From sequence record PP418985.1: DNA of 64,000 nt; one strand, written 5' to 3'. Below are positions 5,420 through 61,226 of the stretch, piece by piece (positions within the stretch are counted from its first letter, which is position 1; each line of letters begins with the position of its first letter). The notes below the pieces were generated by a model. It had not been told where the DNA came from and ran no database searches. It worked only from the letters and a program-made list of their open reading frames with translations. Source of the DNA: Escherichia phage UPWr_E1. Both the position numbers and the translations under genes were made by a program.

Positions 5420-5851
5420 ATGGTTTATCCAACTCCTAGTAAGATTTACATCGATGATACCCATTTTATGGTTGATATGATGGGTATCACTTTTAGCGGT
5501 AAGATTAATATTGTAGAATGGGAATTACACGGTCAACCTGTTACTGACTATGACCACTATATCCCTTTTTTGGGTGATGATAATTTTGTTTCGTTTGACC
5601 ATGAAGGTTACATGATCTTTGAACAGTCCGACGTGCCTTTGTATCTTGCAATGATGCAAATTCCTACGAAAGTTTCTGTTGCTGAGGGTGATTGCGATTG
5701 TTGCGGTTGGTATACTGTAACAGATATTAAGTTGCCATCCGGTAAAGAACTTTACAATGAAGACCATTTTGGAAACTGCAATTTTCCGTGTGATTGGGAA
5801 GAATTTTTCGAACTGGTAGAAATTGAAAGAACTTATTTGAGGAAGGGATAA
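5420..5851 (+). CDS. hypothetical Cys-rich protein (143 aa)
   Basis: ATG 5420 after GAGGATTATATA. Confidence 0.55.
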   Translation: MVYPTPSKIYIDDTHFMVDMMGITFSGKINIVEWELHGQPVTDYDHYIPFLGDDNFVSFDHEGYMIFEQSDVPLYLAMMQIPTKVSVAEGDCDCCGWYTVTDIKLPSGKELYNEDHFGNCNFPCDWEEFFELVEIERTYLRKG

Positions 5852-6663
5852 TGAAGAAAGCATTAGGTTTAATTCCCTATACTGGCAATAAGGAAAAGTT
5901 ATTGCCATGTGTTAGTAAGTATTTCCCTAAGCATTATAACCGCTTTGTTGATGCCTTTTGTGGCGGCTTGAGCGTGTCTCTGTACGTCGAAGGTGATGTG
6001 CTGGCTAATGACTATGATCACCGCTTAATTGATGCTTACAAAGCGATTGACGAGTGTCCTGATCCGGTTTCTACGATCAAGCGGATTATTTCCGAAAATG
6101 GTTTGTCTCGTGATGATAAAGATGCTTACATGGCATTCCGTAAGAAGTATAACGAGAATCCAGATCCACTATCGCTGTTTGTGTTGATTCAGCATAGTTT
6201 TAGCAACATTAACCGTCATAACCGGAAGGGAGAATTTAATGCTAATTTTGGTCGCCGGACTTTTAACGAAAACGCGGTAGAGCGTGTCCTGAATTTTAAA
6301 GAAGAAAACAAAGACGGTCGAATCAATTTTACGTCTGGTCGTTATGACGAGATCGAGATCTTGCCCGGTGATTTCGTTTATTTGGACCCGCCGTACCTTA
6401 TCACTTCTGCGGAATATAATAAGTTCTGGAGTGACGAGGAAGAGATTAAATTCTATCAGTGGGTAGAATCTATTATGGCGAGTGGTTTTCAGTTTGGTAT
6501 CAGTAATGTCACACATCATAAGGGAAAGGTAAATGATCATCTTCTTGACTTTATCAAGCGGAATGATTTAAACTGCGTCCTGTTGAATAAGACCTATTGC
6601 CTAGATCGTTCAGGTGGCAAGTCTTCTGATACGCAAGAAGTTTATGTAACTAACGTAGATTGA
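5851..6663 (+). CDS. dam: DNA adenine (N6) methyltransferase, Dam family
   Basis: 270 aa; FCGGLSV (motif I) and DPPY (motif IV); colinear by eye with remembered T4 Dam. Confidence 0.9.
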   Translation: MKKALGLIPYTGNKEKLLPCVSKYFPKHYNRFVDAFCGGLSVSLYVEGDVLANDYDHRLIDAYKAIDECPDPVSTIKRIISENGLSRDDKDAYMAFRKKYNENPDPLSLFVLIQHSFSNINRHNRKGEFNANFGRRTFNENAVERVLNFKEENKDGRINFTSGRYDEIEILPGDFVYLDPPYLITSAEYNKFWSDEEEIKFYQWVESIMASGFQFGISNVTHHKGKVNDHLLDFIKRNDLNCVLLNKTYCLDRSGGKSSDTQEVYVTNVD

Positions 6664-10197: not shown

Positions 10198-12060
10198 ATG
10201 GAAAAACTAATCAAAGACATTACAGAAATCGCAACGGGTAAAGAAAACGAAGTAAGCAAAGAGAACGCGAACAAAGACGCGCGAACATTCCCGACACGTC
10301 GAGATCTGATTGCTGGTGCTGTGTCTAAACAGATTGCTAAAACCGTGTTACCTGAGCACATCTATAAAGCGCATGTAGACGGTGATATTCATTATCATGA
10401 TATGGATTATGCACCCGCTATGCCGTTTACTAACTGCTGTCTTGTTAATCTCAAAGACATGTTAGAGAATGGTTTTAAATTGGGTAGTGCACAAATCGAA
10501 AGTCCGAAATCAATCGGTGTTGCATGTGCTGTAACCGCTCAAATTATCGCACAGGTGGCAAGTCATCAATATGGCGGAACTACCATAGCAAACATTGATC
10601 AGGTTTTAGCGCCATACGTTGAGAAAACATATCATAAACACCTTGCTGATGCCGAAACCTACGGAATCAAAGCTGATACTCTCTATGCACAAGAGAAGAC
10701 AGAAAAAGAAACGCTAGACGGATATCAGGCGTTGGAATATGAGATCAACACTTTGTTCTCTACCAATGGTCAAACGCCTTTTGTGACTTTAACATTTGGT
10801 ATGGGTACTAGCTGGGAAGAAAAACTGATTCAGAAAGCGATCCTGAACGTTCGAACTAAAGGTTTAGGTAAAGATGGTATCACTCCGGTGTTTCCTAAGC
10901 TGGTGATGTTCTTAGAAGAAGGATTAAACCTTAAACCGGAAGATCCGAACTACGACATTAAGCAACTTGCATTGGAATGTTCTAGTAAGCGTCTTTACCC
11001 TGATTATATCTCTGCGAAGAATAACCGTAGTATCACTGGATCTAGTGTTCCGGTTAGCCCGATGGGTTGTCGTAGCTTCCTGGGTGTGTGGCATAATGAG
11101 AAAGGCGAAGAAGTATTAGACGGACGTAATAACTTAGGTGTTGTGACTCTGAATCTTCCGCGTATTGCTCTTATTGCCGCGCGTCGTGCTGGTAAAGCGT
11201 CTGTAATGCGCAGAATTGAGCTATTCGAACAAGAGCTAGCTAATCGTATGCCTATTTGCTTTGATGCGCTCATGAGTCGCGTAGACGCTTTAAAAGGCGC
11301 TAAAGCCAATGTTGCTCCTGTACTGTATACCGAAGGTGCATTTTTCCGTATTCATCAAAACGATGAAATTTTGGAAGTGCTGAAAGATGGTCGCGCTAGT
11401 ATCTCTCTTGGTTATATTGGTTTACATGAGGTATTGAGCGTCCTGTTTGGTGTCCATCCGTTTGATTCGGAAGATGCGCAGCGATACGGTAAACATATTC
11501 TTAAGATCTTGCGTCATTATACTGAAAAATGGAAGGACGAAACCGGACTTGGGTTTAGTCTTTACGGTACGCCAGCCGAGAGCCTTTGTTATCGATTTAA
11601 TCGACTTGACCGAGAGCAATTTGGTATTATTAAGGGTGCTACCGATAAAGACTGGTACACCAACTCATTCCACCTTGACGTAGACCGGAAGGTTACACCG
11701 TTTGAGAAAATCGACTTTGAGAAAGATTATCACTGGCTGGCGTCCGGTGGCATGATCTCTTATGTTGAGTTCCCAGACATGAAAAACAACCTGAAAGGTC
11801 TTGAAACTGTAGTAGACTATGCAATGGATAAATTGCACTACTTCGGTGTTAATACCCCTTCTGATGTGTGTCATGTATGCGGATCTACTAAGGAAATGAG
11901 AGCGACCGAGTTTGGTTTTGTTTGTCCTGATTGCGGCAATGATAATCTGGAAAAAATGAATGTTATCCGTCGCGTTAGTGGATATCTTGGATCTGTTGAT
12001 CTGCGTCCATTTAACCACGGGAAACACTCTGAGATGGTAAACCGCGTTAAGCATATGTAA
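10198..12060 (+). CDS. nrdD: anaerobic ribonucleoside-triphosphate reductase (class III)
   Basis: 620 aa; C-terminal glycyl-radical region and zinc ribbon (CHVCG...CPDCG); no intron interruption. Confidence 0.92.
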   Translation: MEKLIKDITEIATGKENEVSKENANKDARTFPTRRDLIAGAVSKQIAKTVLPEHIYKAHVDGDIHYHDMDYAPAMPFTNCCLVNLKDMLENGFKLGSAQIESPKSIGVACAVTAQIIAQVASHQYGGTTIANIDQVLAPYVEKTYHKHLADAETYGIKADTLYAQEKTEKETLDGYQALEYEINTLFSTNGQTPFVTLTFGMGTSWEEKLIQKAILNVRTKGLGKDGITPVFPKLVMFLEEGLNLKPEDPNYDIKQLALECSSKRLYPDYISAKNNRSITGSSVPVSPMGCRSFLGVWHNEKGEEVLDGRNNLGVVTLNLPRIALIAARRAGKASVMRRIELFEQELANRMPICFDALMSRVDALKGAKANVAPVLYTEGAFFRIHQNDEILEVLKDGRASISLGYIGLHEVLSVLFGVHPFDSEDAQRYGKHILKILRHYTEKWKDETGLGFSLYGTPAESLCYRFNRLDREQFGIIKGATDKDWYTNSFHLDVDRKVTPFEKIDFEKDYHWLASGGMISYVEFPDMKNNLKGLETVVDYAMDKLHYFGVNTPSDVCHVCGSTKEMRATEFGFVCPDCGNDNLEKMNVIRRVSGYLGSVDLRPFNHGKHSEMVNRVKHM

Positions 12061-37918: not shown

Positions 37919-38232
37919 TGCATGTATTTGCTGTATGTTATCGTGATAAAGACGGATTCTTTCAATACTCAGTGGACGCGAAAGGTCGCGTCCTAACTTG
38001 CGAAACACATGATGCTGCGTTAGCGTCAATGTGTGATCAGATAGATTATTGTGAGAGTCTATTGGCAGGTGAACCGAAATACAAGGTTGTACCTAAACGA
38101 AAATTTGGTATAATCCGATCTTCTGAAATTGTTCGGGATGGTATAGAATACAAAATTCCTGAATATGAAAAAGAACGGGTACGGCGAGAACTCAATACTA
38201 TCTGTGTTCGCAAGGTGAGGATTTTAGGATAA
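37918..38232 (+). CDS. hypothetical protein (104 aa)
   Basis: ORF; start overlaps upstream stop. Confidence 0.5.
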   Translation: MHVFAVCYRDKDGFFQYSVDAKGRVLTCETHDAALASMCDQIDYCESLLAGEPKYKVVPKRKFGIIRSSEIVRDGIEYKIPEYEKERVRRELNTICVRKVRILG

Positions 38233-39623
38233 TGAGCAGAGTATTAACTTTCGATATGTTGACAGACGGACAAAAACATGCTTTTGATGTTCTAATGAAA
38301 CGCATTGAACAAAAGAAGCATACCACTGTCCGGGGTGCGGCGGGTACTGGTAAAACCGCAATGATGAAATTCATTGTTCAGGAAATGGTCCGCCGTGGTG
38401 TAACTGGTGTGGTTTTGGCAACGCCTACCCACCAGGCTAAAAAAGTTTTGAGTAAGGCGGTAGGTCGTCAAGCATTTACTTTACATGCACTACTGCGACT
38501 AAACCCGACTAACTATGAAGATACTCAAGTATTTGAGCAAAAAGATACTCCTAAACTAGATGATGTTCAGATCATCATTGTTGATGAAGCGAGTATGGTC
38601 GATAAGAAACTATTTGATATTCTCATGAAGAGTATCAACGGTCGAATTGTTGTTATTGCAGTTGGCGATCCGCACCAGTTACGACCAGTTGATCCGAGTG
38701 GTGCAACGTCAATTTCTCCTTTCTTCACGGATGAAAATTTTCAAAACGTGGAGTTGACAGAAATTAAACGATCTAATGCACCGATCATTGATGTGGCGAC
38801 CGCTGTCCGTAACGGTAAATGGGTATTCGAAAAGCAGTGCGGTAACGAGGGTGTATTCCATAGCTCAACTCTGCCGGAGTTTATGAAGCATTATTTCGAA
38901 ACCGTTAAAACGCCGGAAGACCTTCTAGAAAACCGTATTCTGGCCTACACTAACAAGAGCGTCGAAAAACTAAATGAAATTGTACGTAAGCGCGTTTATA
39001 ACACCGATGAACCAGTGATTGTAGATGAAATTCTGGTTACTCAGGAACCGTTGATCGAATATATGCGAGATGAACGCGGGAAGAAGATTCCCAATGTTAT
39101 TTTTAACAATGGTGAGATGATCCGAGTTAAAGAGGTCATCCCGCGTGAATTTACATTACGTTGCACGGGGGTAGATCCGCAACCAGTTTTAGGCTATACT
39201 CTGAAAGTGGAAAGCGTCGATGATGACGAAGACAAAGAAATCCTAAATCAGAAAGTAGGTTTAGATGCAGTCGGAATCACTACAGATAAACCGGATTTAG
39301 TAGAAATCAACATTCTGACAGAACAACGTCAGAAGAACATTTTCTCTATCTATCTGAATACGGTCGCCGGACAATATCGCGAAATGAAGAAAGAGAATCC
39401 AAAATTTAAACCAGATTGGGATTCCTTCTGGACGATGAAGCGTATGTTCTTGAATGTAAAAGCATTACCAGCTTGCACCATTCATAAGTCACAAGGGATC
39501 AGCGTAGACCGCGTGTTCCTGTACACTCCTTGCATGTGTACAGACAATGTTGACTTTGAATTGGCAATGCAGTTATTATATGTTGGTGTTACCCGTGCGC
39601 GGTATCGAGTAGACTATATTTGA
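38232..39623 (+). CDS. dda: DNA helicase Dda (SF1B)
   Basis: Walker A GAAGTGKT, IIVDEASM; colinear with remembered T4 Dda incl. C-terminal LYVGVTRARYRVDYI. Confidence 0.92.
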   Translation: MSRVLTFDMLTDGQKHAFDVLMKRIEQKKHTTVRGAAGTGKTAMMKFIVQEMVRRGVTGVVLATPTHQAKKVLSKAVGRQAFTLHALLRLNPTNYEDTQVFEQKDTPKLDDVQIIIVDEASMVDKKLFDILMKSINGRIVVIAVGDPHQLRPVDPSGATSISPFFTDENFQNVELTEIKRSNAPIIDVATAVRNGKWVFEKQCGNEGVFHSSTLPEFMKHYFETVKTPEDLLENRILAYTNKSVEKLNEIVRKRVYNTDEPVIVDEILVTQEPLIEYMRDERGKKIPNVIFNNGEMIRVKEVIPREFTLRCTGVDPQPVLGYTLKVESVDDDEDKEILNQKVGLDAVGITTDKPDLVEINILTEQRQKNIFSIYLNTVAGQYREMKKENPKFKPDWDSFWTMKRMFLNVKALPACTIHKSQGISVDRVFLYTPCMCTDNVDFELAMQLLYVGVTRARYRVDYI

Positions 39624-39633
39624 GGAAATTATT

Positions 39634-39801
39634 ATGATTATGCGAAGTATCCCAGAATTTAATGATGTGACGGTAAGCCGTCACAATGGAACTGTTACCA
39701 TGTGCTTTAGATGGGGTCTGTACGGCTGGAACGTGTCCGGCGATAGTGAAGCTGCATGTATCAATAAAATGATCGAACATTTCACTAAGCGAGGTTTTTG
39801 A
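39634..39801 (+). CDS. hypothetical small protein (55 aa, not in ORF track)
   Basis: ATG 39634 after GAGGAAATTATT. Confidence 0.4.
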   Translation: MIMRSIPEFNDVTVSRHNGTVTMCFRWGLYGWNVSGDSEAACINKMIEHFTKRGF

Positions 39802-39802
39802 T

Positions 39803-40045
39803 ATGGTTGTTATTAACGATATCTCTAAGGTAATTCATCTTGAATCAATTGTCGCGTGGAACCGTCAAAAGATTCATTGTGACTATACACAACATGTAAT
39901 GAATTTTAACCACAAGGTACGCGCATACATGGCAACGGATCGACTGTTAACCGATAATTACGGTAAAGGAATTATTGATTGTAGCGGTTTCATTCTGGAT
40001 AAAAACGATCTGGAGTTATTCCGACACATCGCGGAGGATATTTAA
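39803..40045 (+). CDS. hypothetical protein (80 aa)
   Basis: ORF; ATG overlaps upstream stop. Confidence 0.5.
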   Translation: MVVINDISKVIHLESIVAWNRQKIHCDYTQHVMNFNHKVRAYMATDRLLTDNYGKGIIDCSGFILDKNDLELFRHIAEDI

Positions 40046-40046
40046 A

Positions 40047-40715
40047 ATGCTTCCAGTGGATTTAATGATTGACTTTGAAAGTTTAGGTTATCCGCCTGAT
40101 GGGGCGGTAATCAATATGGCGGCAATCGGATTTAAAGAAGACCCACATAATCCACCGACTTTTAAAGAACTGGTTGACAATTCCTTTCTGGTAAAATTTG
40201 ATATTCCTTCCCAGAAAGGTGTAAGGATCTTTGATCATGGTGTGGTTGAATGGTGGAAGAATACCGCCTCAGAAGGCATGAGAAAGCAATTAATCACAAA
40301 TGGTACGGAAGTATCAACTAAAGAAGGTTTAGCGCGTTTTAACGCATTCTGTGAATCTGTAGGAGTAGATCCGGTTAAATCCGTAATGTGGTCACGCGGT
40401 AATGCGTTTGATATTCCGTTACTAGTTGATATGATTCGACGTGCTCATAATACCCGTGAGACGTTCAGCCTTGAACCTGTGCGATTCTGGAACATCCGAG
40501 ATGTTCGCACCGCCATTGAGCGTACATTGATGCATCGTGGTATGTGTGAATGCCCGTTACCAATGGGTACGCTAGACGGATTTATCGCGCATGATGCAAT
40601 TCATGATTGCGCTCGCGATATTCTTATGCTAATCTATGCACAACGTTATGCTATGGGTCTGGAAGACCTACCAGAAAATCCAGATCCAAATTCAGTTAAG
40701 AAACAAAGGGGATAA
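40047..40715 (+). CDS. dexA: exonuclease A (DexA, 3'-5' DNA exonuclease)
   Basis: Colinear with remembered T4 DexA (IDFE..G, WWKN, GTLDGFIAHDAIHDCARDILM, YAMGLED); ATG 40047 after GGAGGATATTTAAA. Confidence 0.9.
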   Translation: MLPVDLMIDFESLGYPPDGAVINMAAIGFKEDPHNPPTFKELVDNSFLVKFDIPSQKGVRIFDHGVVEWWKNTASEGMRKQLITNGTEVSTKEGLARFNAFCESVGVDPVKSVMWSRGNAFDIPLLVDMIRRAHNTRETFSLEPVRFWNIRDVRTAIERTLMHRGMCECPLPMGTLDGFIAHDAIHDCARDILMLIYAQRYAMGLEDLPENPDPNSVKKQRG

Positions 40716-40716
40716 T

Positions 40717-51604: not shown

Positions 51605-52372
51605 ATGAAAAACCTGATCGCTGCTATCATTCTTTCTGCTACTGCTTTCGGTGCTAATGCTGCGTCCTTCGATTGCGCTAAAGCTACTACCAAATCAGAG
51701 AAGTTTATTTGCGCGAATGAGTCTATCTCCGAACTGGATTCTAAACTTCATGAAGTATATGTTAAAGCTGTTAAGATTGATCCGTCTCTGAAACAAGAGC
51801 AACGCAACTGGAATAAAACTGTTCGTGATACAATGATCAATATCGGGCAGATTCAGCCACTGGAGGCTGTATATAACGCTCAAATTCAAAACTTGATGAA
51901 TGTATTGCCTAAAGAAGAAACCTCGTCAGAAAGAGAATCAGAGGCTTCTGTGAAGGTTGAAGAACAACAACCGAAACAGGAAGAAAAAGTTGTAGTTCAA
52001 CCGAAGAAAGAAAAGAAACCACAAACCAGCGAGTTTACCTTGCAATGTGAATCTCACTTTAAATGGAAAAATATCGACGGAGCAAACACTAAGCCGAAAG
52101 CACAGCCATTTTATAAAGAGTACAATCCAGGTGAATTGACTCTGAAAGTAAAAGATGGTCAGATTATCCATTTTACATACATCGACAATAATGATGTGCA
52201 TAAGGCAAACACAAAACGAGTAGTTGATGACAACGGAATGATCGTTTTTAGCGGCTGGAAAGAAAATAAAAAGTATTATGTGTGGCGTGAACAGGATAGC
52301 GATATCATTCGCTTAGAAGTCCGCGAACAAGGATACTCTAAAATCTATGTTGACCAGTACGGGTGCAGATAA
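51605..52372 (+). CDS. secreted protein with N-terminal DUF1311 (LprI/YecT-like) domain
   Basis: Signal peptide MKNLIAAIILSATAFGANA; FDCAKATTKSEKFICANESISELDSKLHEVY fits the C..A....E..IC....L...D..L...Y DUF1311 signature; Lys/Glu-rich linker; stem-loop promoter 51542-51576. Confidence 0.65.
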   Translation: MKNLIAAIILSATAFGANAASFDCAKATTKSEKFICANESISELDSKLHEVYVKAVKIDPSLKQEQRNWNKTVRDTMINIGQIQPLEAVYNAQIQNLMNVLPKEETSSERESEASVKVEEQQPKQEEKVVVQPKKEKKPQTSEFTLQCESHFKWKNIDGANTKPKAQPFYKEYNPGELTLKVKDGQIIHFTYIDNNDVHKANTKRVVDDNGMIVFSGWKENKKYYVWREQDSDIIRLEVREQGYSKIYVDQYGCR

Positions 52373-54660: not shown

Positions 54661-55317
54661 TTATCTAATCCTTCCGAGGATTCTGGCAGATTGATTGCAA
54701 AGAGTATCTAAATTCTCAATGTCAATATCTGGTTTATTCTTCCATGCAATGGCGATACTACCAGAATAGACATTATCGAGATTGAATATAGGACAAGAAT
54801 ACATGAATCCTATATCGATATTCTCTAATTTTTTCTCCCTCGACGGAATATACTGGAAATCTTTATCGGTAAAATAGGATTTACCTAAAAGATGCCTACG
54901 ATATTCTTCGCTCGTTTTATTGATAGGGAAGCCGCCTAAATTCTTTTCATCAATTGTATGTGGCAATTTTCCTTCGTATGCCACCAAATCAACGAAATAG
55001 TTTAGGTTTTTTGGACGAAAGCTAAAAACAGCAGAAAAATCGGCATCTGCCGACACATGAACTATCTGTAACTGCTCCTGTGCTGCATTATCAAAATTGC
55101 GGTCTTTTTCTACCTGGAGAACGTGAGCATAAGTCTCATAACGAGTTTCTTTATAAAGCGCAAACAACTCGTTTTTGCTATAAACGACAAATGCTAATAT
55201 AGACAACACAACGGCAGCAAAAACACGAAGTACGAGCAACTCCGTGCTTTTAGTTGTGAAAATAGCGCGCAGGACATTTGAGATAGCAAAGTCTTTCTCT
55301 TTTTCAGAAACTTGCAT
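54661..55317 (-). CDS. t: holin T (T4-type class III holin)
   Basis: 218 aa (same as T4 T); single N-terminal TM helix; LQIVH.S..ADFSAV.SFRPKNLNYFVD..AYEGKLP, RILGR as in remembered T4 T. Confidence 0.9.
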   Translation of the reverse strand: MQVSEKEKDFAISNVLRAIFTTKSTELLVLRVFAAVVLSILAFVVYSKNELFALYKETRYETYAHVLQVEKDRNFDNAAQEQLQIVHVSADADFSAVFSFRPKNLNYFVDLVAYEGKLPHTIDEKNLGGFPINKTSEEYRRHLLGKSYFTDKDFQYIPSREKKLENIDIGFMYSCPIFNLDNVYSGSIAIAWKNKPDIDIENLDTLCNQSARILGRIR

Positions 55318-55351: not shown

Positions 55352-55591
55352 TTATTTAGGTACTTGACTATCACCCGTTTTATTCTGCTCGTTGCTATCT
55401 TCCGTCTGTTCTTTATTAAACTCCTTATAAAGTTCTTCCACAAAACGGTCATCAATTGGCGTATTGGTATATGCCGCAAGACGACGAGCGCAATAGAAGA
55501 AAATTTTAGTGAGCATCTTTTCACTAATTAACTTTGATAATAATTTCATTCCGAAACTAGACAAAGCACCAATGACGATATTATAGACCAT
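55352..55591 (-). CDS. hypothetical protein (79 aa)
   Basis: ATG 55591 preceded on - strand by AAGGAG; N-terminal hydrophobic segment, acidic C-terminus. Confidence 0.55.
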   Translation of the reverse strand: MVYNIVIGALSSFGMKLLSKLISEKMLTKIFFYCARRLAAYTNTPIDDRFVEELYKEFNKEQTEDSNEQNKTGDSQVPK

Positions 55592-55642: not shown

Positions 55643-55945
55643 TTAGCGGTTGCTCAAACGTCTATAGCGAAGATGGGAAATACCCCTGTTTGTAGTTACC
55701 GTGATCGTTACTCCCTGCGGCACAATACAAGAATGGATCTGTCCCCAATCATGACCCTTATGACTCCCAGACACACAAAAGCCATGCAAAAGCAATTCAG
55801 AGTCACCGCCACCACCACCAGAAGAATGAGCACCAAATGAAACCGTACCGAAAGCGTCTGGTGTCCATCCATTAGGGATATCAAACCAACCCTGATTCGC
55901 TTTACCAGCTTTATTACCTAAAACACCATCTACCCACCATCCCAT
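55643..55945 (-). CDS. small glycine-rich paralog C (100 aa)
   Basis: GWWVDG...GWFDIPNGW...GGGGGD; start overlaps paralog B stop (TAATG). Confidence 0.6.
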   Translation of the reverse strand: MGWWVDGVLGNKAGKANQGWFDIPNGWTPDAFGTVSFGAHSSGGGGGDSELLLHGFCVSGSHKGHDWGQIHSCIVPQGVTITVTTNRGISHLRYRRLSNR

Positions 55946-56244
55946 TAATGCATTCTCCTAAATTGGAAGTGGTTTAAACTTCCTTTGCCAATACTAAAGC
56001 TGACAGTAGCGCCAGCACCAACTAAAGAACTAGCTCCCCAACTTCCTGCACTACCGGCGTGATGACCAGATTCAAGAGTACCGTTTACATATAGCTCTGC
56101 ATCTAGGTCATTACCAGCGGCTTCGGCATGAACAGATACAATACCGCATGAATCTGCCACCCAACCATTAGGAATACCAAACCATCCACCATTAGCATAA
56201 ATGCTAATAGCATTTGCCATTCTTCCAGCAATCCACCCAGCCAT
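55945..56244 (-). CDS. small glycine-rich paralog B (99 aa)
   Basis: AGWIAG...GGWFGIPNGW; 2 nt after paralog A stop. Confidence 0.6.
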   Translation of the reverse strand: MAGWIAGRMANAISIYANGGWFGIPNGWVADSCGIVSVHAEAAGNDLDAELYVNGTLESGHHAGSAGSWGASSLVGAGATVSFSIGKGSLNHFQFRRMH

Positions 56245-56246
56245 AA

Positions 56247-56543
56247 TTAAAACTCCATAAATTTAAAGTATTCAATCCCACCGACACCACCATGACCAAA
56301 TGTAACAGTACATCCAGCAGGAACAAACGCATTAACGGTAAATCCCCAATCCCCGCCACCACGACGACGAGCGGCAACTACACCATCAACGGAAATATGC
56401 ATATCACCCCAACCATCATTAGCATTATGCCGCAAAACAGCAACCCCTGCACGACTGGGTACATATCCATTTGGAATATCAAAAACATGCCATTTTAAAG
56501 CATCAATTTTAGTATTAATTTCACTACCGACCCAATATCCCAT
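56247..56543 (-). CDS. small glycine-rich paralog A (98 aa)
   Basis: MGYWVG...WHVFDIPNGY...GGGDWG...GHGGVGG; 38 nt downstream of gp37 stop, RBS TAAGGA. Confidence 0.6.
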   Translation of the reverse strand: MGYWVGSEINTKIDALKWHVFDIPNGYVPSRAGVAVLRHNANDGWGDMHISVDGVVAARRRGGGDWGFTVNAFVPAGCTVTFGHGGVGGIEYFKFMEF

Positions 56544-56554
56544 TTAAGATCCTT

Positions 56555-56573
56555 AGCGGGGAGAAATCCCCGC
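56555..56573 (-). other. intercistronic hairpin between gene 37 and glycine-rich paralog A
   Basis: + strand AGCGGGGA-gaaa-TCCCCGCT; same stem word as the type I promoter hairpins; T-run only on + strand side. Confidence 0.55.
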
Positions 56574-56581
56574 TATTTTAA

Positions 56582-59500
56582 TTAACCAAATAATTTAGCC
56601 TCAATTGCAGCAAGACGTTCACGAAGAATTTTATTTTCTTCTTTAAGAAGTGCAATTTCTTCTGTGTGTTCGTTGATTGCAGCAGTAATTAAACCAATAA
56701 CACCGTTATAGTTCAAACGAAGAAGGTTTTCACCAACCGGATCGCCTTCAACTAGTTCCGGTAAAATGGCTTGAACTTCTTGAGCAATCAAACCAGCATT
56801 AGGCTCCCATCGTTCGCTACCGTCTTCATTTACTCCGCGTTTTTGAAGATACATATAACCGTTAATTTTTGAAAGTGTCTGTGATGCATTTTCAAATTTA
56901 ACTAAATCCTTCTTCACGCGAATATCAGAACGGATATAAATGTCACGAACATATGTCGAATAGTTGTCATTCGCCTGAATCAAATGACCATGAGAAATAA
57001 TAGCTTTGTCAACTTCGGTCCATAAAGCAGCACCAACACTCCATAATCCAGGATGTTCTTGATGGAAGATACCCCATGAGGCAATATGTTGTCCGTTTGC
57101 CATCAGGTTAATACGTCCATCACCACCATGCGCTAAACCAGTGTCATTATCACCAATAGCAATTGATGCGCCTCCCCAAACCGGAACCGTACCAACACCA
57201 ATTCTAGGAGTTTGAATCAAAGGGCAATAAAACTGTCCGTTAGCATGAAACTCAAACACACCTTGTGGATGGTTAGCCCCTGGTGTAGCTTCCGCAGATC
57301 CAACACGAATAACAGCTTGTCCCCATGTTCCGGGAGTACGACGTAAGCCAAAGTCAGCCTTAGTAGAATATCCTTGACCTGTGATCTGGCTATGTCCTTT
57401 AATAAGTGGATAATAGCTATCTTGTCCAACACTACCCTGATCAATAAAGATAGGTGCTTCTTCGCGCCACTGTCCGTCCCATGAACCGGAATGATTAGCA
57501 ACCCACTGTGTAGCGTTTATATAGATGCGGTCTTTGCTAATACTAACATTATTAAAATTTTGTGGCGCAAGTGCTATCTCGCCATTATTCGTGATGTGTA
57601 TACCAGCCTGAGTTGCATAGCTATAAAATGCTAGCGAATTATCCGCACCACCTTTACCAATATACCAGTTATTATTTCCGCCTATATCACCGCGAATATG
57701 CAAAGAATTGCTAGCGGTAGTCGATAGTACAATCGCATCACCCGGACGTTTAATGGTTAGTCGACCGTCGGATTCAACTTCACCAAAGAACTTAGTTTTA
57801 ATTGCACCCGTCGCTAAAGTACGTTCAGTGGAAAAATGAGCGCCTTTGCTATCTTCTAACTGAATAATGTTATCACGAGCATTATTGCTATCACCCCAAT
57901 GATTAAACCGGAAATAATCGCGTGATTGCTTACCACCCGCTTCAAACGTCAGCGTACCTTTACTTAAATTAACATCACCACCAAAGGTAGCAGCAAGCGA
58001 ACTACTTTTTAATCTTAAAATATCAGCACCGCTAGTTCCACCTAAAGTAACATCACCAGTTTTGAATTGATAACGGAAAGGTCTATTTGTGTTAAAGTTT
58101 CCATCTTGATCATTTTCGTCGGTGGAAAGAATATAAAGACTTTCACCATCATTACGGAAAATTGTACCAAAATTACCGCCATACATTTTAAATGCATTGG
58201 ATGAACGGAATTTAACTTCTGTGTTAAAAGTTGTAGTTGATTTAAACGTTGTTGAACTACCGAAGTTAACAACACCATTAAAATCTTGTTGTGCTGTCCA
58301 TGTGTGGCGACCATCTTCCACAACAATACGGCGAACGGTATTAGTTCTATTTCCCGGATTACCAGCTACACGAACGACAAAATAACGGTAGTTAGCTTGT
58401 GACACAGTACCACGCCAAACCTGAACGGTGCGACCTGTTCCGGTATGCTCACTAGGTCCAACGGATAACATAATTAAGTTACCGTCAATCGTTCCCCAAT
58501 CCATATTTGCTGGCATGTTCTTGACTTTATTCAGCGGTACGCTATACATCCCGCCAGGAACAAAATCAAATGTTTGCCAGTCTAGCTCTGTTAATTGAGC
58601 TTTAACACCACCCATACCCAAAGTAATTGGCAGAGAATAAGATGTATATACTTCGTTCCATGTACCCCAAACGCCATTAGTATATGCGCGCTCAAAAATA
58701 CGTCCGCGAGTAGTTGCACCTGTTCCGGCAGTAGTAAATTTTTGGAAAATAGCACCACCAGAAGCACGCTGTTTAACTTCCAGCAAACCAACAATAACAG
58801 GCGGCAAACCTTCACCTGTAGGGCAGTTAATAACGGCATCAGTGCCTAAAATATTATATAAACCTGGAGTTTTAAAATCATTCAGGTTTCCGTCATAGAA
58901 AGTCGCTGGTGTGACATTACCTACTTGTTGCCACGGTCCCCATTTAGGCGCAGAAGCATCCCACGCAGCAGCAAGACAACGAGTATAAACAACACCAAAT
59001 CTGGTCGTATATCTCTGTGTGCGAGAATATTTTCCACCTTCATATACTTCTAAAAGTCCTTGAGCGGACGATCCTTCTTCTGGGAAATTTCTGTCAAAGG
59101 TAGCAATGGTATTTGAACTATTCCGCCACAAACCAAAATGTTCCGCGCCACCTAGATCATTAAGATCAATTGTGGTTGACAATGGACGAGTACCGGATTG
59201 AATATTTCTCCACACACCCCACGGACCATCAACACCATTCCATTTAGCAGACAAAGAACGAATATAAACATTTCCGTATCTAGTTGTATATCTCTGAGTT
59301 CCAGCAAATTGCCCAGCCGTAAACACTTCCAATACACCAACAGCATTTTCTTCTGGGAATTTATTTGCAGGTTGCGCATTTGTTGAAGTAGATTTAGACC
59401 AAATGCCAGTAAATTTACCAGTCGGTCCATAATTATCTAAATTTGCATCAGTTGGCAATTCGCCGCGAAAGTGTCCCAAAGTAATTACATTATTGCTGTC

Positions 59501-59626
59501 ATCTTTTGTATATAGTTCTCGATCCGCTAGGTTAATAGCAAGTTCACCCGGAGTTAGAATATTCGCATCCGGCTTGCGACCTGCCGTACTTGTTCTTTTA
59601 AATTGGATTCTCTGTAAATCTGCCAT
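56582..59626 (-). CDS. 37: long tail fibre distal subunit gp37 with C-terminal intramolecular chaperone domain
   Basis: 1014 aa (T4 gp37 about 1026 aa); between 36-like gene and holin; C-terminal about 120 aa contain SDIRVKKDL plus coiled coil, typical of peptidase S74 auto-cleaving chaperone domains. Confidence 0.85.
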   Translation of the reverse strand: MADLQRIQFKRTSTAGRKPDANILTPGELAINLADRELYTKDDSNNVITLGHFRGELPTDANLDNYGPTGKFTGIWSKSTSTNAQPANKFPEENAVGVLEVFTAGQFAGTQRYTTRYGNVYIRSLSAKWNGVDGPWGVWRNIQSGTRPLSTTIDLNDLGGAEHFGLWRNSSNTIATFDRNFPEEGSSAQGLLEVYEGGKYSRTQRYTTRFGVVYTRCLAAAWDASAPKWGPWQQVGNVTPATFYDGNLNDFKTPGLYNILGTDAVINCPTGEGLPPVIVGLLEVKQRASGGAIFQKFTTAGTGATTRGRIFERAYTNGVWGTWNEVYTSYSLPITLGMGGVKAQLTELDWQTFDFVPGGMYSVPLNKVKNMPANMDWGTIDGNLIMLSVGPSEHTGTGRTVQVWRGTVSQANYRYFVVRVAGNPGNRTNTVRRIVVEDGRHTWTAQQDFNGVVNFGSSTTFKSTTTFNTEVKFRSSNAFKMYGGNFGTIFRNDGESLYILSTDENDQDGNFNTNRPFRYQFKTGDVTLGGTSGADILRLKSSSLAATFGGDVNLSKGTLTFEAGGKQSRDYFRFNHWGDSNNARDNIIQLEDSKGAHFSTERTLATGAIKTKFFGEVESDGRLTIKRPGDAIVLSTTASNSLHIRGDIGGNNNWYIGKGGADNSLAFYSYATQAGIHITNNGEIALAPQNFNNVSISKDRIYINATQWVANHSGSWDGQWREEAPIFIDQGSVGQDSYYPLIKGHSQITGQGYSTKADFGLRRTPGTWGQAVIRVGSAEATPGANHPQGVFEFHANGQFYCPLIQTPRIGVGTVPVWGGASIAIGDNDTGLAHGGDGRINLMANGQHIASWGIFHQEHPGLWSVGAALWTEVDKAIISHGHLIQANDNYSTYVRDIYIRSDIRVKKDLVKFENASQTLSKINGYMYLQKRGVNEDGSERWEPNAGLIAQEVQAILPELVEGDPVGENLLRLNYNGVIGLITAAINEHTEEIALLKEENKILRERLAAIEAKLFG

Positions 59627-59694: not shown

Positions 59695-61185
59695 TTAGAA
59701 AGTACCAAAATCAATTACCGCATTAAGCGGAACAGCGCCAACATCATCAGGAGTTGGTTTGTGTCCTTCGTGGTATAATTCAAATGTATCTGTGTCCTGA
59801 GTATTGTTTCGGGATTTAACGAAAATAATTTTAGAATCATGTGTGATGCCTAGTTTCTCGTGCGCTTTAATATCACTAACACGATGAATCATTGCTGTGC
59901 CATCTAAGCTATTAAGTCCAGCGTAGCAATTGTCACCATTATAGTTAGCTTTTGCTGTACGAACGCCGTTTGCAGCAGGAACTGTCAACGCACCTGTCAT
60001 GGTATCGCCAGTCACATTAACATAGCGAGCATCAGCCAATTTACGGTGATCTACATAGTTCCATGCGGTCCATGATTCATTAGAACAAGAACGCCAGCAC
60101 ATCGGATGATCAATAGATTCAGGATAATATACCTGAACAATTCGACGAGTACCGACCGCATCTTCTGGGCGATATACCATCAAAACGCCGTTATAATAGC
60201 TATCAGACGGTTTATTAGTACCTGATCCAGCATTTTCCACACGATAGATACCGCGATTAATAAGAGTGTTCCAATCAACGTTTCCAATGATTGTTGGATT
60301 TGCTACCATTGATTTTTTCTCAAAGTAGCTCAAACGAACCAATTCATTCGGACCAGCAGGATCGTTTGTCGCCAACATTCTAGGCGCTTGCAAGTTACCT
60401 TCCATAATATCACCAGCACGTTTAACCTGTGCATCATTGGTGACATTACCTAGTCCAACATCGGCTTTAGTTGGTTTATTGTTGGTGTGATAAAAACGAC
60501 CTTCTTTGCCATTAACAAAAATGGTAGGCTCATCTTTGCTACGGAATACCAACGTATCAAGAACGTTACCATAATAGATCTTAGTCGCATCAAAATTAAT
60601 TAAATCACGTCCCCTTGCAATTAATTTCGAATCAACCGATAGTTTAACAGTGACAGTGTTTAAATTATATGTTCCTGTGAGAGTATCACCGCGACGAGAC
60701 ACCAAATCTAAATCATTATTCGTCGGCTTATTAACAGGGCTATAGACGCGTTGACCAGTGTCTTTAATGGTTGTCCCTTCGATGGTCCCTTTAGTTTTAA
60801 AATCACCTGTGGTAGTGTCAATATAAGCCATGATAACATCATCACGAGCATTAACAAAGCCGATGGATTTCCACGAATGCAAACCCCAACTTACACCATC
60901 AAAGTTAGCAGCATCACTCTTGCCTTTAAAGATCCCGTTCTTTTTGGTTTCTCCACCGGATGCGCTACCTACGCTTAAACCTTCCTCAAAATGGACCAGT
61001 TTCTGAAATGTACCACCTTCGGTTGCACTGACGGAATCAGAATCTTCCGCCGTCGGCTTGTCAAACGCAGTATAGATTTTATGACCTTTATAGAAAAGCT
61101 GGTCCCCCGCTGGCTGGATCGTCAAGTTTCCTTGCGTCCAAATGGGAGATCCGCCTACAGTAGATCCATGTTTCAAATCTGCCAT
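59695..61185 (-). CDS. 36: tail fibre protein (gp36-like by position, 496 aa)
   Basis: Between 35-like and 37; late promoter TATAAATA 61219-61226 upstream; larger than T4 gp36 (about 221 aa), so assignment is positional. Confidence 0.55.
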   Translation of the reverse strand: MADLKHGSTVGGSPIWTQGNLTIQPAGDQLFYKGHKIYTAFDKPTAEDSDSVSATEGGTFQKLVHFEEGLSVGSASGGETKKNGIFKGKSDAANFDGVSWGLHSWKSIGFVNARDDVIMAYIDTTTGDFKTKGTIEGTTIKDTGQRVYSPVNKPTNNDLDLVSRRGDTLTGTYNLNTVTVKLSVDSKLIARGRDLINFDATKIYYGNVLDTLVFRSKDEPTIFVNGKEGRFYHTNNKPTKADVGLGNVTNDAQVKRAGDIMEGNLQAPRMLATNDPAGPNELVRLSYFEKKSMVANPTIIGNVDWNTLINRGIYRVENAGSGTNKPSDSYYNGVLMVYRPEDAVGTRRIVQVYYPESIDHPMCWRSCSNESWTAWNYVDHRKLADARYVNVTGDTMTGALTVPAANGVRTAKANYNGDNCYAGLNSLDGTAMIHRVSDIKAHEKLGITHDSKIIFVKSRNNTQDTDTFELYHEGHKPTPDDVGAVPLNAVIDFGTF

Positions 61186-61218: not shown

Positions 61219-61226
61219 TATTTATA
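61219..61226 (-). promoter_or_regulatory. T4-type late promoter (TATAAATA) for the gene 36-like tail fibre gene
   Basis: + strand TATTTATA 61219-61226 = TATAAATA on - strand, about 34 nt upstream of ATG 61185 with GAGGT RBS between. Confidence 0.65.

Follow-up and report, generated by a model that had tools for sequence, protein, structure and literature searches.

Three small paralogous genes in the gp38 slot of a Krischvirus and their possible role as a tail fibre tip cap

Directly downstream of the long tail fibre gene 37 of Escherichia phage UPWr_E1 (PP418985.1), in the 64,000 nucleotide stretch of DNA that was analyzed (the window), lie three small genes, A, B and C, at the place where a related phage carries its gp38 adhesin. 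We regard it as somewhat likely that their products are late structural subunits which together form a heterotrimeric knob at the fibre tip, a functional analogue of gp38 and not its homologue. More tentatively, the trio might be the first known fibre cap to bind receptors as a heterotrimer of separately encoded chains, and thereby a second, independent class of exchangeable tip adhesin beside gp38. A first-pass annotation had seen in these genes a possible fibre-tip accessory or adhesin set that determines host range. Judged by genomic context and predicted fold, the first part is the best-supported reading; that the trio is what chiefly sets host range does not follow, since it is conserved and not hypervariable.

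All three genes are on the minus strand: A at 56247–56543 (98 amino acids), B at 55945–56244 (99 amino acids) and C at 55643–55945 (100 amino acids). A and B are separated by 2 nt, and the stop codon of B overlaps the start codon of C in the sequence TAATG; these positions, strand, lengths and junctions are exactly those first described. Each gene is preceded at 6–9 nt by a Shine-Dalgarno sequence (AAGGA, GGAG and AGGAG, respectively), and the translational coupling suggests equimolar synthesis. The window derives from a Krischvirus (RB49/JSE-like Straboviridae), and Escherichia phage vB_EcoM_G2248 matches it in this region with 93% identity. The locus is indeed flanked by gp37 and the holin gene t. 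Between C and t there is also a gene for a 79 amino acid phrog_402 protein (55352–55591, minus strand), which the first-pass annotation had left unmentioned. This gene belongs to the Krischvirus backbone between the adhesin slot and holin T (54661–55317, minus strand), and is a downstream boundary marker which lies outside the A-B-C module.

Upstream of gene 37 lies a gp36-like long tail fibre connector (59695–61185, minus strand; phrog_16472, E=0; Phage_T4_gp36 below the Pfam cut-off). The T4-type late promoter motif TATAAATA occurs once in the 64 kb, against 5.6 copies expected from shuffled sequences, and this sole copy is positioned exactly upstream of gp36 (61219–61226, minus strand). The trio is therefore probably carried on the late fibre transcript, and gp36-gp37-A-B-C probably form a single transcription unit. 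Between the gp37 stop codon and the ribosome-binding site of A is a 9-bp GC-rich hairpin (56554–56575, minus strand; MFE −20.1 kcal/mol, z=−2.06), labelled a terminator in the G2248 annotation, which has no U-tract on the coding strand. Speculatively, it could stabilise or attenuate the transcript and so keep trio expression below that of gp37. The same hairpin resembles a canonical intrinsic terminator on the plus strand only, where it is followed by TTTTAATT; no gene ends there. Elsewhere in the window, amid small early-type genes, a 255 amino acid ORF (51605–52372, plus strand) possesses an apparent signal peptide (MKNLIAAIILSATAFGANAAS) and a lysine/glutamate-rich linker.

The three proteins show 28–31% pairwise identity and share W4, FDIPNG(W/Y), G33, D47, G54, G63 and G77, as well as an aromatic-x-aromatic C-terminus; the A orthogroup is marked by a C-terminal F-K-F-M-E-F. 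In a tblastn/six-frame search of the window they found one another, B and C with E values of 4e-11 to 9e-14 and A and C with 8e-6 to 1e-9, so that their paralogy, as originally proposed, is not a matter of chance. Each protein begins M-x-x-W and continues into an amphipathic helix. W4 is invariant in 31 enterobacterial sequences; in distant members this position is usually aromatic or hydrophobic, often Y, F or L. The dN/dS values of 0.07–0.34 indicate purifying selection and thus real genes, and this signature together with their conservation rules out a non-coding or artefactual origin.

A, B and C constitute a new, rare protein family. There was no significant family match in Pfam (none at E≤1), PHROG or NCBIfam; a weak match of phrog_18834 to residues 43–91 of A (E=5e-4) was recorded. 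No relative was found among PDB sequences, the matches being spurious ones to repeat proteins, including designed "Pizza" propellers hit through a short DIPNG-like motif. When 1.84 billion representative proteins were searched exhaustively with an HMM, there were 19 matches, of which the small ones (97–129 amino acids) are genuine. The large ones (P0046, P0047, P0056 and P0057) were rejected as ankyrin, NHL and other repeat proteins sharing the same type of short motif. Homologs in public sources are all named "hypothetical protein", and no description of the family was found in the literature. The B orthologs of Salmonella (L009, L021–L023) have an N-terminal extension of approximately 30 residues, missing from the E. 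coli and Krischvirus B proteins, with a conserved P-E/Q-x-R/K-I-P just before the shared G-W. Their (I/V)P.(G/A)GW(I/V) motif resembles the VPGWIG of the gp38 N-terminus; the match is very short.

The structures of A and C were predicted with confidence by AlphaFold2 using family alignments (pLDDT 83.2 and pTM 0.67 for A; pLDDT 85.6 and pTM 0.74 for C). Both models consist of a lower-confidence N-terminal helix (residues 2–14) followed by a beta-sandwich, with seven strands of at least 3 residues in A and six in C. Closest to the models in structure were C1q/TNF trimers, with many TNF ligands and the lymphotoxin heterotrimer among them, together with the knobs of phage fibres and carbohydrate-binding modules. 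When C was compared with the PDB using Foldseek, lymphotoxin, cerebellins, C1QL and GITRL were at the top, with weak E values (1.5e-3 and above), and CBM35 and LecB were also listed. Against predicted viral structures the best matches were to C-terminal parts of tail fibres and to phage C1q-domain and collagen-repeat proteins (E values of 2e-4 to 1e-2). The models thus suggest a compact C1q/TNF-like or lectin-like jelly roll, at the level of fold only; neither PF00386 (C1q) nor PF00229 (TNF) matched A, B or C at E≤1.

Among the closest known systems are the C1q/TNF heads (C1q A/B/C, C1QL, cerebellins, the NC1 domains of collagens VIII and X, and lymphotoxin a1b2) and their bacterial and viral look-alikes (BclA, PRD1 P5, and the needle knobs of Sf6 and Pan3). 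The trio proteins differ from gC1q domains in being about 30% shorter and in not being covalently joined to a stalk. The likeness to the beta-sandwich proteins CBM35/51/61, the pectate-lyase CBM 8x8h and LecB is again confined to the fold.

With 1014 amino acid residues, gp37 (56582–59626, minus strand) is the distal subunit of the long tail fibre. It contains a Gp34_trimer-like domain (residues 459–518) and, as had been noted, its own C-terminal chaperone domain, which matches PF13884 (Peptidase_S74) at residues 900–959 (E=2.4e-11). This domain and the motif DIYIR^SDIRVKK place it among the self-cleaving S74 fibres. By analogy with this family, the intramolecular chaperone (residues 900–1014; 56585–56929, minus strand) is predicted to release itself by autoproteolysis between R899 and S900. 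The codons for D895-I-Y-I-R899 (56930–56944, minus strand), located by alignment, specify the last strand before the predicted cut.

An alignment of fibre C-termini revealed that every enterobacterial fibre linked to a trio has kept D(V/I)YIR^SD, irrespective of its tip type. At least two unrelated tip types occur among these fibres, one of them also in the trio-less phage JSE, and variation of the tip is thus not matched by variation of the trio. The constancy of the D(V/I)YIR^SD strand across unrelated tips explains why the two need not vary together. In analogy to the gp38 system, we propose that the D895–R899 strand serves as a docking platform once the chaperone has left. Further upstream in gp37 (residues ~800–890; 56930–57230), a segment of about 95 amino acids, …GDNDTGL…GDGRINLMANGQHIASWG…HGHLIQANDNYSTYVR, is common to the window, G2248 and the prophage loci L005 and L008, and is missing from the similar tips of G2494 and KFS-EC.

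The trio had been assigned to the gp38 position, and this could be substantiated: Krischvirus G2494 has a Pfam-confirmed gp38 adhesin (PF05268, E=1e-65; PF21721, E=1e-19) at exactly the same place, following a gp37 which also bears an S74 domain. Among Krischviruses the slot after gp37 exists in three states, namely empty (JSE), occupied by a gp38 adhesin (G2494) and occupied by the trio. The first-pass annotation had further argued that a gp37 with its own chaperone has no need of a gp38 chaperone. This does not make a partner encoded next to it redundant: S74-type gp37 normally co-occurs with adhesin-type gp38, as in G2494 and, according to PMC7917993, in phage S16. The proper comparator for the trio is therefore the gp38 adhesin and not the T4 chaperone. 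The same paper, summarising Dunne et al. 2018, states that in S16 and its relatives the surface on which gp38 docks becomes accessible when the gp37 chaperone cleaves itself off, that conserved tryptophans in the N-terminal domain of gp38 enter indentations like prongs, and that the D(V/I)YIR^SD strand is the platform for gp38.

Homology between the trio and gp38 was rejected. Comparison of the family with gp38 by hhalign gave a probability of 0.4%, and A, B and C had no Pfam match at E≤1, whereas the gp38 proteins of G2494 and TO6, used as positive controls, scored 1e-65 to 1e-70. The trio lies directly 3' of an S74-chaperone gp37, as gp38 does, and its proteins are far from the length of approximately 260 residues typical of gp38. 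According to a preprint (10.64898/2026.04.02.716166), gp38 lies some 55 kb away from gp37 in certain Krischviruses. Searches with tblastn of the window and of the remaining sequence of G2248, the nearest complete genome, yielded no gp38 homolog, which speaks against a gp38 hidden elsewhere in these sequences.

In its position as a separate gene directly after an S74-type gp37, and in being swapped horizontally as a cassette with the end of gp37, the trio resembles the gp38 adhesins of the T2/T6/Ox2/S16-like Straboviridae (PF05268 and PF21721). By analogy, it would also be expected to dock on the cleavage-exposed D(V/I)YIR strand through N-terminal aromatic residues. It differs from gp38 in consisting of three chains of about 100 residues rather than one of about 260, in its predicted jelly roll in contrast to a polyglycine-II sandwich, and in having no hypervariable segments between the glycine-rich motifs. 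It is also far rarer, being found in 3 phages against 726 records with gp38 in the phage collection.

The two kinds of occupant are mutually exclusive at the slot, both in Krischvirus and in a siphovirus prophage lineage, and the clearest trace of their exchange is in the E. coli TO6 prophage. There the S74 fibre gene is followed by a gene for a 259 amino acid gp38 adhesin and then by a 70 amino acid ORF (L034, NZ_LS992166.1, 5142–6197 region), which joins the opening 9 codons of the Krischvirus phrog_402 gene to the final ~58 codons of C. The chimera includes an 81-bp stretch 97.5% identical to window positions 55645–55565. This remnant shows that A, B and half of C gave way to a gp38 cassette of Krischvirus origin. 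It is direct evidence that the trio and gp38 can take each other's place in a single functional slot, and also that a temperate siphovirus has received DNA from a T4-like phage which is strictly lytic.

Each of the 21 intact loci that were fetched has a fibre with a C-terminal Peptidase_S74 domain, followed by A, B and C in this order. These loci come from three lytic Krischviruses, the E. coli/Salmonella siphovirus prophage lineage and metagenomic contigs. Among 50,697 phage records, trio genes are present in G2248, G37-3 and KFS-EC only, and a search of 5.8 billion proteins returned homologs from E. coli, Shigella and Salmonella only. The prophage lineage is present in 14 of 5,426 complete E. 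coli genomes. A family-profile scan of genome contigs, one genome per species, gave no confirmed loci, which is attributable to this sampling since the representatives do not carry the prophage.

In the divergent metagenomic contigs (25–35% identity) an S74-terminated fibre is likewise followed by three small paralogs and, in one contig, then by a second fibre gene. When these distant genes were compared with the enterobacterial A, B and C HMMs, the first was always assigned to A and the third to C; for the second, the assignment was to B in two of the three contigs. It follows that the genes were triplicated long ago and that their order and copy number are fixed. The first-pass annotation had called the triplet diversified; it consists instead of ancient, conserved paralogs which are 88–96% identical across phages with unrelated fibre tips.

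The prophage gene order is terminase, portal, a protease-capsid fusion, proteins of 96 and 140 amino acids, a major-tail-protein-like gene of ~276 codons, the fibre (1021–1233 amino acids, ending in Peptidase_S74), A, B and C, a second major-tail-protein gene (~160 codons), tail chaperones, tape measure, distal tail protein and gpJ. Both genes bracketing the fibre and the trio match the major tail protein phrog_158. In L007 they are located at 5541–6374 and 10962–11432, and the same arrangement exists in L004–L009 and L020–L023. The product of the longer phrog_158 gene might be a tube-like ring which anchors a side fibre. No cultured relative of this lineage is present in the phage collection, where its capsid is matched best by that of DCP80 (36% identity).

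The distal part of gp37 (residues ~651–1014, tip and chaperone; 56582–57672, minus strand) and the trio share 81–82% DNA identity with the E. coli prophage loci L005 and L008 over window positions 57672–55642, and thus behave as one horizontally exchanged cassette. L004, L006 and L007 share only 56641–55642, that is the last 20 codons of the chaperone and the trio, with 88–89% identity. Both stretches break off one base beyond the stop codon of C. The A protein of the window is 95% identical to that of the prophages. Temperate siphoviruses and lytic T4-like phages accordingly share the module by horizontal transfer as a cassette, which may or may not include the tip and chaperone of the fibre. 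Base composition was uninformative as a guide to the direction of transfer, the prophage locus being equally AT-rich (42% GC, with similar GC3).

These data can be accommodated in the following scheme, for which we infer the location of the trio in the virion, its docking site, its 1:1:1 stoichiometry and its binding to a receptor. A, B and C would be made late, each as a short amphipathic N-terminal helix bearing W4 followed by the C1q/TNF-like jelly roll. gp37 would trimerise and its C-terminal S74 chaperone would cut itself off at ...DIYIR^SD..., leaving the conserved terminal strand exposed as a platform with three-fold symmetry. One copy each of A, B and C would dock on this platform via their N-terminal segments. 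The resulting A1B1C1 complex would form a knob with pseudo-three-fold symmetry at the distal end of the long tail fibre, where it would touch the cell surface. The fixed order and number of the genes, their ancient subfunctionalisation and their translational coupling fit a 1:1:1 complex, for which the heterotrimers of C1q and lymphotoxin could serve as precedents. Separately encoded adhesins which dock on self-cleaving tail fibres are a known kind of system, to which the module would add a new architecture.

Several observations speak against a tip cap. Conservation as strong as that of the trio is unusual in a surface that makes the primary contact with a receptor, W4 is invariant in the enterobacterial sequences only, and JSE is devoid of the trio despite having the tip type of many trio-linked fibres. 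In KFS-EC (L003, 5452–5775 and downstream) the trio has collapsed, apparently through recombination between the glycine runs of A and C, into an A(1–88)::C chimera with a frame break in the C part. KFS-EC is nevertheless a viable O157:H7 isolate, from which it follows that there is at least one background that can do without the module. The trio may therefore have an accessory or secondary part in binding and not be the primary determinant of host range.

Alternatively, A, B and C may be different tips, each forming its own homotrimer (or acting singly) on the same platform, so that the six fibres of a virion would be mixed and its host range broadened. The predicted fold is homotrimeric in most known cases, the three paralogs differ most in their predicted loops, and C alleles recombine independently of A and B among the prophages, all of which would suit such an arrangement. 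With alternative adhesins, however, one would expect gains, losses and reshuffling of the genes, and even in the contigs with 25–35% identity there are always three of them in constant order. Their tight translational coupling, moreover, points to a fixed stoichiometry. For these reasons we consider separate tips unlikely.

We judge it equally unlikely that the trio consists of non-structural assembly factors for S74-type fibres, which would hold the tip after release of the chaperone or help in its joining and be absent from the mature virion. Genes directly 3' of fibre genes often specify assembly chaperones, as do T4 gene 38 and the tfa genes of lambda, Mu and P2, and the trio has the same location; its conservation and its compatibility with unrelated tip types are also in keeping with such a function. 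Some Tfa proteins stay bound to the tip. Yet the trio-linked fibre already has its own chaperone, and many S74 fibres, including that of JSE with the same tip type, exist without a trio. A, B and C matched none of the Tfa/Caudo_TAP, T4 gp38 chaperone or gp57A profiles in Pfam, PHROG or NCBIfam, and their predicted all-beta, knob- or lectin-like fold is unlike that of known fibre chaperones. Finally, the slot is one that exchanges with an adhesin and not with a chaperone.

Small genes beside receptor-binding genes sometimes code for exclusion proteins, such as llp of T5 and cor of lambdoid phages. That the trio is cargo of this sort, a moron unrelated to the fibre and active in superinfection exclusion, receptor masking or anti-defence, would agree with its placement and with the tolerance of KFS-EC to its loss, but is very improbable given that A, B and C have no signal peptide, lipobox or transmembrane segment, that the only nearby late promoter motif in the window is 5' of gp36, that the prophage trio lies inside the late tail operon between tail-tube-like genes, and that the strict linkage to S74 fibres across three backgrounds would not be expected of cargo.

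The proposed fibre cap would have several consequences. Host-range prediction and engineering in T4-like coliphages are currently based on gp37 tips and gp38 adhesins; since trio-bearing phages lack gp38 and have nothing annotated in its stead, existing tools cannot see what determines their receptor. Should the trio indeed cap the fibre, it would be a new class of plug-in adhesin for any fibre which ends in D(V/I)YIR and an S74 chaperone, and a natural case of a three-fold fibre carrying three different subunits, and hence an asymmetric binding surface. It would also document that strictly lytic Straboviridae and an uncultured lineage of enterobacterial prophages have exchanged receptor-binding cassettes directly, at least one way. 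A family annotated only as "hypothetical" gains a name and a testable role.

Outside the window, in phage G2248 (L027), two genes annotated as hypothetical lie between the major capsid and vertex genes. One (38057–39769) specifies a 570 amino acid protein with a collagen-like stretch, GEQGITGEKGENGRG, and the other (39787–40716) a 309 amino acid protein; their products may be a head fibre or decoration.
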